DNA from: a virus
Taxonomy: Duplodnaviria; Heunggongvirae; Uroviricota; Caudoviricetes
IMG/VR virus record: IMGVR_UViG_2698536335_000001
Span: 1 to 26,512 of that record
Length of the DNA stretch: 26,512 nucleotides
Strand: one strand, 5' to 3'
The notes beneath the pieces are model-generated. The model had not been told where the DNA came from and made no database searches. It saw nothing but the letters and a program-made list of their open reading frames with translations. This document shows, in pieces, positions 3,779-23,632 of the stretch (positions within the stretch are counted from its first letter, which is position 1; every line of letters starts with the position of its first letter). A program made the position numbers and the translations under genes.

Positions 3779-3845
3779 ATTACCTGAAAAACCATATATG
3801 GATAGGTAGACCATGAATACAAACAGATATTACCTTTCAGGTAAT
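3779..3845. promoter_or_regulatory. pair of inverted 11-mers ATTACCTGAAA (3779-3789) and TTTCAGGTAAT (3835-3845); the second is part of the 17-bp palindrome ATTACCTTTCAGGTAAT (3829-3845)
   Basis: Read directly in the intergenic region upstream of the tailspike gene; the same 17-mer recurs at 20444-20460. Confidence 0.35.
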
Positions 3846-15973: not shown

Positions 15974-16411
15974 TTAACCAGTTACTTTTGAGCGGATCGG
16001 GTACGGCGTATTGGCATCAACATCAAGACTGATACCCGCAGTGAATTCGCCAGCCGTTAGTGGGCCAGTTGCGACGGAGTAGTTAACACGCAGATATCGC
16101 TGAACACCGGCAGGCACCTTTGCAGAAACAACTCGTTTACCTGCTGTCAGGGCGGTCTTTGCCAGTGCACCACTATCATAAATAGTGGTCCATGAGCTGT
16201 TATCCTCACTCGTCTGCAACTGGATGTTTACAGTTGCATCACCGCTTGCTGCGGCGGCTGTGTTAACCAGCGCCCAAAACTCAAGCGGGTAACCCACGCC
16301 GATATCACGACGTTTTCCGTCAATTGGACCGAGATCGATTACGTCAGTAGAAGCGGCGGTATTCGTAACCGCCTGAGCTTCGGAGAACATCAACAGTTTG
16401 TCGGTGATCAT
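15974..16411 (-). CDS. hypothetical structural protein (possible capsid decoration or minor capsid protein), 145 aa
   Basis: Immediately downstream of the major capsid gene; GGAGA RBS; Ala/Thr/Gly-rich. Confidence 0.6.
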   Translation of the reverse strand: MITDKLLMFSEAQAVTNTAASTDVIDLGPIDGKRRDIGVGYPLEFWALVNTAAAASGDATVNIQLQTSEDNSSWTTIYDSGALAKTALTAGKRVVSAKVPAGVQRYLRVNYSVATGPLTAGEFTAGISLDVDANTPYPIRSKVTG

Positions 16412-16462
16412 CTTCTTTCTCCATTAGTGGGCCTGTTGCGACCCACAGGTTAATAACAGGCG

Positions 16463-18458: not shown

Positions 18459-20134
18459 TGTGATTGCCCACCCTGACCACTAACTGCATTCGCCATAGCT
18501 GACAACACACTCGGATCCGAAGTTTTAGCTTCGCTTAGCGTCTTGGCCCCCTGTGCCGCCGCCATCCCCATCGCCATCATTTGTTGCTGCTGTTGTTGCT
18601 GTGCCCGTTGCTGGCGAGCCTGCTCAACCTGTTCCTGCGGAACAATGACGGTTGGAGACACTCCGGACATATCAGCGAATGCATCGATCGCCTGATCAAC
18701 GTTGAGTTTGTCGAGAGCTTCTGGTTTCGCTTGCGCAAGTTGACCAATGAAGTTAACCGTGGACGCCAGACTGGACAGGCCGATAGACTTCTGCGCCTGA
18801 GCCATGACGGAAATGTATTCGACCTTCAGGGGCATGCCTTCCATCGCGTCAGGCGGTGGCGGCAGCATGTTTTTACGCACCATCATCGAGAAAGCGCGGT
18901 CAATGAGAGGATTAAGACATTCGTCGTTCAGACGCTCCAGAACCGGCCCCAACATCAGAAGTTTTTCTTCTTTCATTTCGATCACCGCTTCAACAGGCAT
19001 CGAGCGGGTATTGATGTTCTGCAACATCATGAACAGATCGACAAAGTAGGCGCTGTTAATGATTTGACGAGTGTCCTGAATGTCTGCCACCAAATCTGCT
19101 GTACTGGGGTTAACCAGATAAGCAGGCCTGAAGCCATCCTGACCAGTAATCTGATCGATATACGTGATGTCGCCAGGAAGAAGGGAGGCGCGCTGATTCT
19201 TGAGGGAAGTCGGAGCAACCATCGGCGGATTGGTGGCTTTATCAATCAACTGCGACTTGCGCTTCTGGAGAAGCTGCAATGCCTTAACAGGTCCAAGCGC
19301 CAGCATACCCGGGCATGATGATCCATAAACATCTTCGCCGTTAACTTCCCAGCGCGGAGCCATAATTGGAAACTCATCGAATCCGGACTCACGCAACAAC
19401 TTGTCGTTATCGCCACCAACCTCGTAATAAACCGATTTGAATGGCTTGTTCTTGCTATCCAGCTTCGATGTGTCGCGGTCAATATTCGGGTAAACCGAAT
19501 GCATCACTTCAATCCACTTCTCGTAGGTGCCGCTTTCCCACATGCTTTTTACGGATTCGCTGACGTTATTTAGCCCGAACTCCTGAACAAGCTGACGAAC
19601 AGTCATAGAGAACTTGCGAAAACAGGTGTCCACACTGCCACGAGGTGAGTTAGCCAGGTAGTAACTACCAATCGGGAATGGCATTGTGCGAATGATGTCC
19701 TCGTCATCCTCCAGTACCGCCATTGCACCGGTGCTGTATGTGCCGAGGCTTCCGTATAACTGCGGAAGAGACTGGTAGAGATTCGACTTATTGAACATAT
19801 CGTTCATGCGGTTCTGCACCGCCTCAAGCCACAACTTAACAGGGCCATAATCCATCATTTCAGGATCTGGCGTAGCCAGGCGAAACCACGGACGGGCGGG
19901 GCTTGTGATGCCTGACATCATGCCGCTGGCGAGAGTGCGCGCCGCCATAGTCCCGGTCGAATCAATAATGCGTGTATTGCGTCGATCGTTACGGTTGACC
20001 TCAGAAGTCAGAAAGCGGGAACCACGCGGGTTGATGTAATCACTCAACTCGCGCCAGTGCGGCTCGAACGACTGACGCTCGCTTTCAAGTTGTGCGAACT
20101 GTTTGTTCAATCGCTCTTTAGTTGTTTCCGCCAT
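18455..20134 (-). CDS. portal (head-to-tail connector) protein, 559 aa
   Basis: Size and position between terminase and scaffold; GGAG RBS. Confidence 0.8.
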   Translation of the reverse strand: MAETTKERLNKQFAQLESERQSFEPHWRELSDYINPRGSRFLTSEVNRNDRRNTRIIDSTGTMAARTLASGMMSGITSPARPWFRLATPDPEMMDYGPVKLWLEAVQNRMNDMFNKSNLYQSLPQLYGSLGTYSTGAMAVLEDDEDIIRTMPFPIGSYYLANSPRGSVDTCFRKFSMTVRQLVQEFGLNNVSESVKSMWESGTYEKWIEVMHSVYPNIDRDTSKLDSKNKPFKSVYYEVGGDNDKLLRESGFDEFPIMAPRWEVNGEDVYGSSCPGMLALGPVKALQLLQKRKSQLIDKATNPPMVAPTSLKNQRASLLPGDITYIDQITGQDGFRPAYLVNPSTADLVADIQDTRQIINSAYFVDLFMMLQNINTRSMPVEAVIEMKEEKLLMLGPVLERLNDECLNPLIDRAFSMMVRKNMLPPPPDAMEGMPLKVEYISVMAQAQKSIGLSSLASTVNFIGQLAQAKPEALDKLNVDQAIDAFADMSGVSPTVIVPQEQVEQARQQRAQQQQQQQMMAMGMAAAQGAKTLSEAKTSDPSVLSAMANAVSGQGGQSQ

Positions 20135-20148
20135 TTCAATGACTCCGG

Positions 20149-20355
20149 TTACTGACCAAGCAGCGTTTTACCGCTGGTATTAGCGGTTGATGTGTCGCCC
20201 TGAGAACCGGTAAGCAGCGTAGAACTACGACCAGCAGCAGCGCGACGGCGACGTGTTTCTTCGTCGCGGGCATCAACAACGGCGGCATCCTGCTCCTGTG
20301 GTGCTGCCTGAACTTCTGGTGTTGCAGGCACTGATGGTGAGCTACCCATGCACAT
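20149..20355 (-). CDS. small Ser/Thr/Ala-rich hypothetical protein, 68 aa
   Basis: Shares an almost identical 16-nt translation-initiation sequence with the portal gene; chosen over the overlapping alternative frame 20136-20375. Confidence 0.4.
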   Translation of the reverse strand: MCMGSSPSVPATPEVQAAPQEQDAAVVDARDEETRRRRAAAGRSSTLLTGSQGDTSTANTSGKTLLGQ

Positions 20356-20423
20356 ATCAATGACTCCGTACGCAATTAAATTATTACCAATTTAACCACA
20401 TATGATTTATTTATCGTAGATAG

Positions 20424-20461
20424 TTGACATTTAACGCACAAATTATTACCTTTCAGGTAAC
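20424..20461 (+). promoter_or_regulatory. candidate promoter (TTGACA at 20424-20429, 17-bp spacer, TACCTT) overlapped by the 17-bp motif at 20444-20460
   Basis: Perfect -35 hexamer read directly; the -10 is weak; the 17-mer TATTACCTTTCAGGTAA is identical to the copy at 3828-3844. Confidence 0.3.
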
Positions 20462-20782
20462 CAAAGAGTTCATTCCGGTTACTAACCTGACTGGCTTGTC
20501 GTTAAATTGAACAGGTGGAGTGAGCTTTTATTTTGAGCAGTACGGCGTATGGCACATGCGCCGATAGCGGTCTGGATACGTTTAAGGGGCACCCTCCCTT
20601 GCTCGGGCAAACGAACCAGGTAGCCGGAATGTGCAAGTCGAGCGGTTTTATTCCGCGCACGGGGATTCACCATCCCGGCGATTCGGTGTGACGCCTCGGA
20701 AGAGACGAGGGTACAACGATGAGAGCATTTATGGAGCCGCGACAAAGTGTGGCGCCTTAACAGGCTAAGTGCTCTCAGCGTT

Positions 20783-20859
20783 GTGGCATTAGCTCAGTTG
20801 GACAGAGCAACCGCCTTCTAAGCGGTTGGTCGCAGGTTCGAATCCTGCATGCCACGCCA
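20783..20859 (+). tRNA. tRNA-Arg, anticodon TCT (reads AGA), 77 nt with encoded CCA
   Basis: Hand-folded cloverleaf: acceptor GTGGCAT/ATGCCAC, D arm GCTC/GAGC, anticodon stem ACCGC/GCGGT with loop CTTCTAA, T arm GCAGG-TTCGAAT-CCTGC; similar to but distinct from E. coli argU as I recall it. Confidence 0.9.
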
Positions 20860-20902
20860 GAATCACGCCTAAGGACCGTGATGCCAGAAGTTCCAGGGGC
20901 TT

Positions 20903-20945
20903 GGCGGTGATGGTTTCCCTTGAAGGACTATCACCGCCCTTTTTA
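20903..20945 (+). terminator. hairpin plus T-run downstream of the tRNA
   Basis: 9-bp stem ggcggtgat (20903-20911) / atcaccgcc (20930-20938) followed by CTTTTT. Confidence 0.5.
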
Positions 20946-21022
20946 CAGCAGGACGCCATTGCGATGACTTCATGCTGTAAACCAGTACAGCCACGGAAGG
21001 CATAACTCATTGCTTCCAGTTC

Positions 21023-21046
21023 GCCCGGTTCGCCGGGCATTTTTTT
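21023..21046 (+). terminator. GC-rich hairpin with seven T residues, abutting the RBS of the gene at 21063
   Basis: gcccgg-ttcg-ccgggc (21023-21038), A, then TTTTTTT (21040-21046); AAGGTGA RBS follows at 21047-21053. Confidence 0.6.
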
Positions 21047-21062
21047 AAGGTGAGATTAGACT

Positions 21063-21434
21063 ATGAGTGACAAAGACATTGAATCTGAAATTCAGGCTAA
21101 AGGTTTAGCCGCGCCGCGCGTTACGCCAGACCATATCGAGAGCATTATTGCTCAGGAGGCATATTTCACAGCAGAAGATGGTTCCTTTGGCGTAGCCATA
21201 AAAGCGAAACATACTGGCGGAGAGGTAAACTACCAGCCGCACGAATCACTTTCTCTGCTGACGTTCTGCGTCCTGGTGCTGCGCAACGGCTTCACCGTCA
21301 CCGGAGAGAGCGCCTGTGCAAGCCCGGAAAACTTTGATGCAGAAATTGGTCGGAAGATTGCCCGACAGAATGCTGTAAACAAAATCTGGATGCTTGAAGG
21401 TTACTTGCTGAAGCAGAAGTTAAGCGAGCAATAA
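21063..21434 (+). CDS. moron-encoded hypothetical protein, 123 aa; possibly N4 gp49 / Sf6 gene 66 family
   Basis: Strong RBS; segment LRNGFTVTGESACASPENFDAEIGRKIARQNA resembles the conserved core of that family as I recall it; opposite strand to the virion operon. Confidence 0.6.
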   Translation: MSDKDIESEIQAKGLAAPRVTPDHIESIIAQEAYFTAEDGSFGVAIKAKHTGGEVNYQPHESLSLLTFCVLVLRNGFTVTGESACASPENFDAEIGRKIARQNAVNKIWMLEGYLLKQKLSEQ

Positions 21435-21454
21435 CACCGTGACATATCACAAAC

Positions 21455-21481
21455 AGCCAGCCTATGAGCTGGCTTTGTTTT
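21455..21481 (+). terminator. hairpin plus T-rich tail after the moron gene
   Basis: agccagc-ctatga-gctggct (21455-21474) followed by TTGTTTT. Confidence 0.5.
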
Positions 21482-21524
21482 ATCCTCATCAGAGGATATC
21501 AACAACATTATCCCCTCAAGCGGA

Positions 21525-23000
21525 TTAAGCATAGGGATCGTAATCTGTGATGGCCTTGCCTTGCTGGTTCTGCTGCCCGGGAATTCGCAGACGCTTAGAC
21601 ACAGGGAACGCAAACGTCAGCAGTAGCGCATCGCCTTTACCCGGAGAACGCCCAAGCCGCTCTTTGATATCTTCCTTCGGTTCGATAACGATTTTACCGT
21701 CCACTCGAACTTTGTACTCTGCCGCCGACAGGTCGTCCGCTGTTTCCTGGTCATCCAGCATGCCGCCCAGCCTCAGCCATGTCTTACATGAGTTGAACAT
21801 CTCCCCACGCTTGTTAAGCATCTGCGGGTCAGTGGACGCACCGCCGAACGGAACAAGTTGCCATGTACGTCCCCAGCCATCACCGATTGACTTCAAACCG
21901 GTTCCGTAACCGAAGTCGATGAACACCGCGTCAGCCTGGTACTGGTCTTCAAAGTCAGCGATACGCTTCGCCATAATCAGATCGTCGGTGGTCTTGTTGC
22001 CGGTCCACAGCACCTTACTGTGCAGCCCCTGCCGCAGGTATATCACCGCGTCATCAACACCGGAGTATGCAGGGTCAACGCCGATTATCACCGGAGCATG
22101 TGCCACCTGCGCAGCAGTTACCACCCGTTTCATTGCCTCGTCAGTAAGACCGGTAGGGATAAACTGCAATTCAGATGCATCAGGGAATATGCCGCGCACA
22201 CGGATTTTAACGAAGTCGCTGTCTTCCCCGTAGTCATCAACCCATTTCTGCAACTGCTGTTTGTTAGTGCCTTCCACCGTCCGGCTGTCAATCTGCGCAG
22301 TTTTCCAGCGGTGTTTATACTTGCGGAAACATTCACGGAATCGCCCGGTATTACGCGTAGGGTTTCCGAACGCCACCCAAATAATCTCAGTGTCTTCGTC
22401 CGTAAGCGCACCCTCGGCAACTTCCCACACCAGATCCGCAATGTTCGACGCTTCATCAAACACCACGATGATGCGTTTGCGCTCGTTGTGTAGTCCGGCG
22501 AATGCCTCAGTGTTGTGCTCAGACCAGGGGATTGCGTCAGCCCGCCACCGCTTGTCGTGCCCAGGATCATTGCTGTACATCGCGGTAGCGGTACAGGTAA
22601 ACCAGTCTTTCGTGATAGCAAGGTTCGACCACTTGATAATTTCCGGCCAAGTCTTCGTTCGTAGCTGGTTGTCGGTGTTGGCGGTCACCACGACCTTACA
22701 ATCCTCGCAAGTGGACATGCCCCAGTTGATCAGCATTGAGATGAATGCGGATTTACCAATACCGTGACCAGAAGCACGTGCCAGCATAAGCGGCTGATAT
22801 CGCGTCTCTGGATTCTGCAGGTGATCACGTATCTCTCGGAACGCATCGGCCTGCCACTGACGTGGACCGGTGGCATGTGCCAGTTCAGTACCCTCTTCCC
22901 CCCACGGGAACGCATAGAGGGCATAGCCAAGCGGATCGTGAGTGAACCCTGCAATATCCTCGATTAACTGCTCTTCAGGAGATAACACTGTATCTGTCAC
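21525..23000 (-). CDS. terminase large subunit, 491 aa
   Basis: Walker A-like ASGHGIGKS and Walker B-like IIVVFDEAS in the N-terminal ATPase region, acidic nuclease-like C-terminal half; start overlaps the small-subunit stop. Confidence 0.85.
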   Translation of the reverse strand: MTDTVLSPEEQLIEDIAGFTHDPLGYALYAFPWGEEGTELAHATGPRQWQADAFREIRDHLQNPETRYQPLMLARASGHGIGKSAFISMLINWGMSTCEDCKVVVTANTDNQLRTKTWPEIIKWSNLAITKDWFTCTATAMYSNDPGHDKRWRADAIPWSEHNTEAFAGLHNERKRIIVVFDEASNIADLVWEVAEGALTDEDTEIIWVAFGNPTRNTGRFRECFRKYKHRWKTAQIDSRTVEGTNKQQLQKWVDDYGEDSDFVKIRVRGIFPDASELQFIPTGLTDEAMKRVVTAAQVAHAPVIIGVDPAYSGVDDAVIYLRQGLHSKVLWTGNKTTDDLIMAKRIADFEDQYQADAVFIDFGYGTGLKSIGDGWGRTWQLVPFGGASTDPQMLNKRGEMFNSCKTWLRLGGMLDDQETADDLSAAEYKVRVDGKIVIEPKEDIKERLGRSPGKGDALLLTFAFPVSKRLRIPGQQNQQGKAITDYDPYA

Positions 23001-23596: not shown

Positions 23597-23632
23597 CACC
23601 GTGGTAATAGTTACCGTTGTGGTAATAGTACC
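23597..23632. repeat. tandem direct repeat, two copies of ~18 bp, core GTGGTAATAGT at 23601-23611 and 23619-23629
   Basis: Read directly: accgtggtaatagttaccgttgtggtaatagtacc, between the terminator and the terminase small-subunit start. Confidence 0.5.

Follow-up and report, generated by a model that had tools for sequence, protein, structure and literature searches.

The portal gene of a phiV10-like prophage and the small gene just upstream of it, gp3, open with nearly the same ribosome-binding site, and the copy at portal is the derived one. On the minus strand, CGGAGTCATTGA[T/A]ATG lies in register on the adjacent start codons of a 68-aa ORF (gp3) and of portal. We consider it likely that this reflects a one-off copying of the gp3 initiation region onto portal in the ancestor of a single clade of phages, after which the two copies evolved independently. 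The stretch of DNA analyzed, called the window below, is 26,512 nucleotides of an IMG/VR virus record. The two 16-mers are best explained as Shine–Dalgarno (SD)-type initiation regions of two adjacent late genes in a phiV10-like Uetakevirus prophage of E. coli.

The locus and its genes

From 19800 to 21700, the window has 98.7% nucleotide identity to Escherichia phage phiV10 (NC_007804; Uetakevirus, epsilon15 group), and the same region also closely matches many E. coli prophages. The structural genes are on the minus strand. The features of the region are collected in Table 1.

Table 1. Features of the gp3–portal region, in window coordinates
Feature	Position	Strand	Content or support
Portal (head-to-tail connector) gene, 559 aa	18455..20134	-	PF12236, E 1.6e-187; phrog_332; PhiV10p07
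Portal translation-initiation region (copy 2, derived)	20132..20147	-	Reads cagtaaCCGGAGTCATTGAAATGgcggaa / cagtaaCCGGAGTCATTGAAATGgcg, the final ATG opening the portal ORF; CGGAG, 8-nt spacer TCATTGAA, ATG
gp3 homolog (PhiV10p06 / epsilon15p03 family), 68 aa	20149..20355	-	phrog_831
gp3 translation-initiation region (copy 1, putative donor type)	20353..20368	-	Reads gcgtaCGGAGTCATTGATATGtgcatg / gcgtaCGGAGTCATTGATATGtgc, the final ATG opening the 68-aa ORF; CGGAG (SD core GGAG), 8-nt spacer TCATTGAT, ATG
Conserved leader 5' of gp3	20369..20460	-	Aligned across 14 lineages; context for copy 1, outside the repeat
tRNA-Arg(UCU), single gene	20783-20859	Opposite to the structural genes	ARAGORN and Rfam

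Conservation and substitution pattern mark gp3 as a real, conserved and already annotated gene. The whole protein aligns to phrog_831 (E 2.4e-36, residues 1–68 on profile positions 3–70 of 70); a Pfam search matched no family at E ≤ 0.1. It is annotated in phiV10, epsilon15, Tyrion and SPN1S, with PhiV10p06 described as similar to epsilon15 gp3, and a protein database search with it returned 146 clusters, every one labelled "hypothetical protein". A homolog of 66–72 aa lies directly upstream of a PF12236 portal gene in all of the ~30 lineages examined, where gaps of 1–20 nt were accepted; the gap in the window is 14 nt. These lineages include the phages epsilon15, SPN1S, Tyrion, VB_ST_E15 and two Klebsiella phages, and prophages of Citrobacter, Kluyvera, Scandinavium, Superficieibacter, Pseudocitrobacter, Buttiauxella, Pseudescherichia, Erwinia, Rahnella, Providencia, Cronobacter, Morganella, Pectobacterium, Salmonella and other E. 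coli lineages. The pattern of change points to purifying selection at the protein level. In 12 gap-free sequences, variable columns number 17, 10 and 58 at codon positions 1, 2 and 3; pN/pS is 0.01–0.22; and among 80 near-identical IMG/VR relatives, the variation is nearly all synonymous. The sequence-only reading had taken the repeat as support for the reality of the 68-aa frame, and in this it was right. It had also proposed that both overlapping frames be checked for conservation. The 68-aa frame is conserved, and the overlapping 79-aa frame (20136-20375) was rejected as coding because it is interrupted in several relatives and because the third-position variation of gp3 falls on its second codon positions.

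Met1 and Cys2 of gp3 are invariant. The Cys codon switches between TGC and TGT; therefore, the amino acid is the selected feature. Other recurring elements are RRRRAAAG..STLLTG and a C-terminal GKTLLGQ (GKTLLG[QA] in the family). An AlphaFold2 model has one helix (residues 24–52) and disordered tails at low confidence (pLDDT 62), and a search of solved structures by sequence gave no significant match, the best having E 0.58. We found no description in the literature of the function of gp3 or of the repeat.

The repeated initiation region

The identity at 15 of 16 positions, with both copies sitting exactly at start codons as originally read, was confirmed by reading the minus strand and by pattern search. 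Allowing up to two mismatches, the pattern search of the window returns these two sites only, where 0.05 are expected, and repeat finding in the window lists the same pair of 16-mers (family D1). A 15/16 direct repeat is not rare per se in this DNA, since the window holds 11 such pairs against ~3.8 in Markov simulations (range 1–8). The gp3/portal pair stands above chance because it is in register on adjacent starts, because it ranks at the top of the 1485 pairs that can be formed from the 55 annotated phiV10 start regions (12 of 13 upstream bases identical), and because of the comparative evidence given below. The runner-up among those pairs, at 11/13, is accounted for by an extended Shine–Dalgarno sequence, AGGAGGTGAGT; in the gp3/portal pair, all but one of the 8 matching spacer bases are outside the SD.

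Each site consists of GGAG, an A/T-rich spacer of 8 nt and an ATG opening a conserved ORF, as is characteristic of an SD-type initiation region, and copy 2 occupies the 14-nt gap between the gp3 stop codon TAA and the portal ATG. Searches of the window and of the complete phiV10 genome gave neither an antisense partner nor an extra copy of GGAGTCATTGA; the single 10/11 sense-strand match lies within a tail gene. RNA folds of the sites were uninformative; each site is partly paired, there is no common motif, and the predicted accessibility of the two is not notably similar. The sequence GGT[C/T]AGTAACCGGA at 20474-20487 (repeat family D3) was considered as a third partial copy, a duplicated 3' end of gp3 at the edge of the variable region. 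It was rejected because phiV10 has GGTTAATAACCGGA there, the similarity stops, and other relatives lack it.

Distribution of the repeat and later change in its copies

Both initiation regions were tabulated in ~30 lineages and scored by identity over the 13 bases before ATG. The identity is 12/13 in the window and phiV10, 12/13 in Enterobacter phage Tyrion (ACGGAGTCATTGT[T/C]ATG), 11/13 in IMG/VR contig L104 and 7/13 in IMG/VR contig L105. In the 25 other lineages, found in Salmonella, Citrobacter, Klebsiella, Kluyvera, Rahnella, Cronobacter, Morganella, Pectobacterium and others, it is 2–6/13; there the two sites have at most the GGAG core in common, often in a different register, and in some of them the gap between gp3 and portal is only 1–3 nt, without a separate SD. 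A neighbor-joining tree built on the portal N-terminus places the genomes that carry the repeat (phiV10-like phages, Tyrion and two IMG/VR relatives) in one tight clade, with 96–100% identity within it and at most 84% to anything else. Since the extended repeat is confined to this one clade, a single origin is the simplest reading. The sequence-only reading had named, as a result that would count against it, relatives showing the repeat only once and no conserved small ORF. Outside the clade, the motif does occur only once, at gp3; the small ORF is conserved everywhere.

Within the clade, the copies change separately. L008/L144 have TCATGGAA at the portal site, unmirrored at gp3; L161 has TAATTGAT at gp3, unmirrored at portal; L051/L183 and L171 have the base before GGAG changed in one copy only. 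In L104 and L105, the portal SD has gone from GGAG to GGGG, again unmirrored at gp3, and L105 has diverged at both sites. No mutation mirrored between the copies was seen among the IMG/VR relatives. These sequences give no sign of continuing homogenization (concerted evolution), nor any sign that the copies need to be identical. In IMG/VR, exact-pattern scans detected no junction with gp3 deleted (leader, initiation region, then portal) and no tandem duplication of gp3; therefore, the repeats show no visible recombination activity. Between phiV10 and Tyrion, neither copy of the core GGAGTCATTG has changed, though synonymous sites of gp3 differ at pS = 0.57, and so the sequence may be under a degree of selective constraint. 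The sole position suggestive of co-evolution is -2, where phiV10 has A/A and Tyrion T/T. This could hint at a link between the copies, but the A/T of L105 contradicts it.

Direction and mechanism of copying

The repeated sequence belongs with the initiation regions of gp3. Spacers of the form YYATTG are found at gp3 in several lineages, and TCATTGA-like spacers are common at that site (epsilon15 CTATTGCT, L105 TTATTGAT, L086 TTAATGCT). In a separate E. coli lineage, L191/L192 (gp3 cluster P0044), gp3 has the sequence CGGAGTCATTGAAATG, which is the exact 16-mer of the portal site in the window; its portal site is an unrelated TAAGGGATCGTTATG. Portal sites outside the clade are of another type, ..GCAGAG (e.g., TAACGGAGTAGGCAGAGATG), arranged as TAA-CGGAG-TAGGCAGAG-ATG with a 9-nt spacer and the SD one base farther from ATG. 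The Pseudocitrobacter portal site is already CGGAGTC..TGAA; only eight spacer bases are not SD, and stepwise convergence, which would count against copying, is possible.

The 14-nt gap of the clade reads N-CGGAG-TCATTGAN. Relative to those portal sites, it has gained a base before CGGAG and lost one from the spacer, which is the register expected if the whole gap had been replaced by the 14 bases that precede the gp3 ATG. GGAGTCATTGA is a gp3-type initiation region. Since it is of that type, and since in another E. coli lineage the 16-mer is present at gp3 only, we regard gp3 as the donor and portal as the recipient.

The portal copy most likely came from one short-tract copying event. In the ancestor of phiV10 and Tyrion, the 13–14 bases that separate the gp3 stop codon from the portal ATG would have been overwritten by a copy of the bases preceding the gp3 ATG. 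The mechanism was probably template switching or short-patch recombination, which would have been primed by microhomology already common to both sites, with GTA(A)CGGAG at the 5' boundary and ATG at the 3' boundary. Afterwards, both copies would have evolved independently as ordinary ribosome-binding sites, and we presume that their identity has no function beyond that of a competent ribosome-binding site. A local duplication had been suggested from the sequence at the outset. Its local character holds, in that copying between neighboring sites best explains the repeat; the event would be a short-tract copy in the phiV10/Tyrion ancestor and not a recent duplication.

Alternative explanations

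That both spacers drifted to the same sequence, by independent convergence or chance and with no copying, seems to us unlikely. Both genes need a GGAG Shine–Dalgarno sequence and an unstructured A/T-rich spacer, the window has an excess of 15/16 direct repeats, an unrelated pair of phiV10 start regions reaches 11/13 through SD similarity alone, and portal spacers that contain ATTG turn up here and there in other lineages (Buttiauxella, CTTATTGA; Pseudescherichia, CGATTGCAG). However, the match in the gp3/portal pair is mainly outside the SD, and the probability of at least 8 matches at the 9 non-SD positions is ~1e-4 for any one given pair. The SD register is shifted by one base and a base is added after TAA, as replacement of the whole 14-nt gap predicts, and none of the 25 other lineages (0/25) shows anything alike. 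Somewhat less probable still is a functional shared element, in which the identity is kept for matched translation or for one translational regulator, e.g., to serve a 1:1 assembly of gp3 and portal. The constancy of GGAGTCATTG is in its favor, as is the fact that gp3 and portal are neighbors in every lineage. A further consideration is that T7 gp6.7, a core protein with the same invariant Met-Cys, binds the outside of the portal barrel through residues 2–15 in 12 copies (PMC11784390). Most lineages, however, including epsilon15, have unrelated initiation regions or a 3-nt gap, the sampled genomes tolerate single-copy mutations, L105 is down to 7/13, and the portal SD of L104 and L105 is weakened to GGGG. 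The lack of a third copy or antisense partner in phiV10 and the predicted accessibility of the two sites, which is not notably similar, also argue against it.

The sequence-only reading had offered another possibility, a recombination scar at the edge of a tRNA island. That a tRNA-containing variable segment, on inserting between terminase and gp3, left a scar or a target duplication has next to no probability as an explanation. Upstream there is a variable, moron-like segment with a tRNA-Arg, where insertions and deletions distinguish close relatives, but ARAGORN and Rfam find one tRNA-Arg(UCU) only, so that "island" is a misnomer. The repeats flank gp3 and not the variable segment. The part homologous to epsilon15 and Tyrion begins at window position 20460. 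Copy 1 is 92 nt into a leader block that all relatives conserve, and 415 nt separate it from the tRNA. An operator-like palindrome, TTACCTGAAAGGTAA, at 20446-20460 opens this leader; the leader contains the boxes TGTCAA and CTACGATAAATAA; and a hairpin-forming TTAAATT-GGTAAT-AATTTAA (20376-20395), present in the minimum-free-energy fold, ends just 5' of the gp3 SD. The palindrome TTACC-N5-GGTAA occurs eight times in phiV10, including on both sides of the repressor gene, and a sigma-70 promoter scan of the leader gave no consensus match. Lastly, the repeat and the tRNA-Arg are independent of each other. phiV10 has both, Tyrion has the repeat and no tRNA, SPN1S has the tRNA and no repeat, epsilon15 has neither, and L104 and L105, with the repeat at 11/13 and 7/13, have no tRNA. 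This uncorrelated distribution refutes the insertion scar.

Significance

Returning to a one-off copy from gp3 to portal, the repeat is best explained as an ordinary lineage-specific evolutionary leftover that is now drifting, and it matters little by itself. It does provide a clean, datable case in which a ribosome-binding site of ~13 nt was apparently copied to a neighboring gene in a phage lineage and then decayed, and it suggests that initiation regions are exchangeable as tiny modules. For annotation, the 68-aa ORF is confirmed as real and both start codons are fixed. The more useful by-product is gp3 itself, a ubiquitous, unannotated small protein always encoded before a T7-type portal in epsilon15-like phages.

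Comparison with known systems

In phiV10, the gene order around PhiV10p06 and PhiV10p07 is the same as in the window, with terminase, a variable segment with tRNA-Arg, gp3 and portal; the same two 16-mers are present and nothing material differs. In epsilon15, the portal initiation region between gp3 and gp4 is of another type (CGGAGTAGGCAGAG), and the repeat is absent.

T7 offers a parallel to the gene pair. We take T7 gp8 to belong to PF12236 (Bacteriophage head to tail connecting protein), like the portal here, and the RefSeq product name of T7 gp8 and of the phiV10 portal is identical, head-tail adaptor. T7 gp6.7 (PF17570, a small core/ejection protein) is 88 aa long versus 68 for gp3, and both are encoded upstream of a PF12236-type portal; three other genes lie between 6.7 and gene 8 in T7, unlike the directly adjacent gp3 and portal. 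Both proteins have an invariant Met1-Cys2 followed by a Pro/Lys-rich segment (MCFSPKIKTPK in T7 gp6.7, MCGFSKPKISTPP in Morganella gp3 and ..TPKIKTPP in Providencia gp3), and both are largely disordered with short helices. Homology between them was rejected. BLASTP of gp3 against T7 gp6.7 gave a non-significant E = 2; PF17570 had no match to the window gp3 at E ≤ 0.1 or to four diverse gp3 homologs at E ≤ 10, and T7 gp6.7 itself scores 98 bits against it; the PHROG families of the two differ; and hhalign aligned 10 N-terminal columns only (probability 2.3%, E 0.02), also non-significant. We do not claim membership of gp3 in the gp6.7 family. We treat the Met-Cys likeness as a resemblance only, and a similar mode of action as a hypothesis suggested by analogy. 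The fuller proposal would make gp3 the epsilon15-group counterpart of gp6.7, its Met-Cys loop clamping the portal barrel in 12 copies, and would also have the identical initiation regions fixed to equalize synthesis for 1:1 assembly. We find this combination very doubtful. A portal-bound core/ejection role for gp3 would, if true, supply a component now missing from the inventory of the epsilon15 virion.

A general mutational mechanism comparable to this case is the copying of short tracts between neighboring short homologies, by gene conversion or template switching. The tract here, unlike in such cases, is only ~8–14 nt, and the exact-pattern scans of IMG/VR turned up no intermediates or recombinant junctions, so the mechanism is one that we infer. 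The outcome is like that of short-tract conversion and template switching in that the derived site is a near-exact copy of a nearby donor, bounded by microhomology that would have existed beforehand.

An operator-like palindrome at the head of the gp3–portal leader

Escherichia phage phiV10 carries 8 copies of the palindrome TTACC-N5-GGTAA, whereas a 39-kb genome should hold about 0.04 copies of a site with 10 specified bases. Copies are found to either side of the repressor gene p40 and at the start of the leader of gp3 and portal. The palindrome looks like the operator of the prophage repressor, which would imply that the repressor directly controls a promoter of the structural genes. In epsilon15, a "repressor" site is annotated in the phage's record at the corresponding position.

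Between the operator-like site and the gp3 Shine–Dalgarno sequence, the leader hardly varies, even across lineages with saturated synonymous sites. A strong hairpin (TTAAATT-GGTAAT-AATTTAA) is formed by the final part of the leader; it reaches about 15 bp once extended in the minimum-free-energy fold and ends just ahead of the Shine–Dalgarno sequence. A promoter scan found no sigma-70 consensus promoter in the leader. Candidate roles for this stretch are a promoter, a 5' stabilizing hairpin or a regulator site.

Features of the gp3–portal locus and sites of the palindrome (window coordinates unless stated)
Feature	Position	Strand	Remarks
TTACC-N5-GGTAA, window	20446-20460, 3830-3844, 23611-23625		
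TTACC-N5-GGTAA, phiV10 (L103)	87, 3252, 20497, 31953, 32015, 32727, 35070, 35132		
Conserved leader elements	within 20369-20445	-	TGTCAA; CTACG.TAAATAA; TGGTTAAATTGGTAATAATTTAAT
tRNA-Arg(UCU), single	20783-20859	+	between terminase and gp3
Sf6 gene 66/N4 gp49-like gene	21063-21434	+	PF13876; between terminase and gp3

Neighboring arrangements

In Klebsiella phages (genomes L187, L186), Rahnella/Advenella lineages (L092-L094) and a Pectobacterium lineage (L200), only 1-3 nt separate the gp3 stop from the portal ATG, and portal has no Shine–Dalgarno sequence of its own. Such junctions suggest translational coupling of gp3 and portal as an alternative, perhaps common, arrangement within the family.

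The tRNA and the PF13876 gene lie on the strand opposite to the structural genes, and insertions and deletions in their segment distinguish close relatives; it is the variable, moron-like part of the locus. The tRNA also has matches in lambdoid and Stx phages, at 83-95% identity.

Elsewhere, two direct copies that agree at 18/19 positions lie 367 nt apart at 16057-16075 and 16424-16442; read from the minus strand, the repeat is GTCGCAAC[T/A]GGCCCACTAA. One copy is intergenic and immediately precedes the gene following the major capsid gene (a PhiV10p11 homolog), and the other falls within the coding sequence of that gene. This repeat may be due to chance.

Comparison with T7 gp6.7

No statistical homology was found between the gp3 family (the window frame at 20149-20355 and homologs P0010-P0115) and gp6.7 of T7 (L102, 565-831). 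In both families the N-terminal Met-Cys is invariant and a segment rich in Pro and Lys comes after it, and the Providencia homolog of gp3 matches gp6.7 literally in PKIKTP. Since homology is not statistically detectable, the N-terminal likeness may be convergent or may represent a very remote portal-barrel-binding motif.
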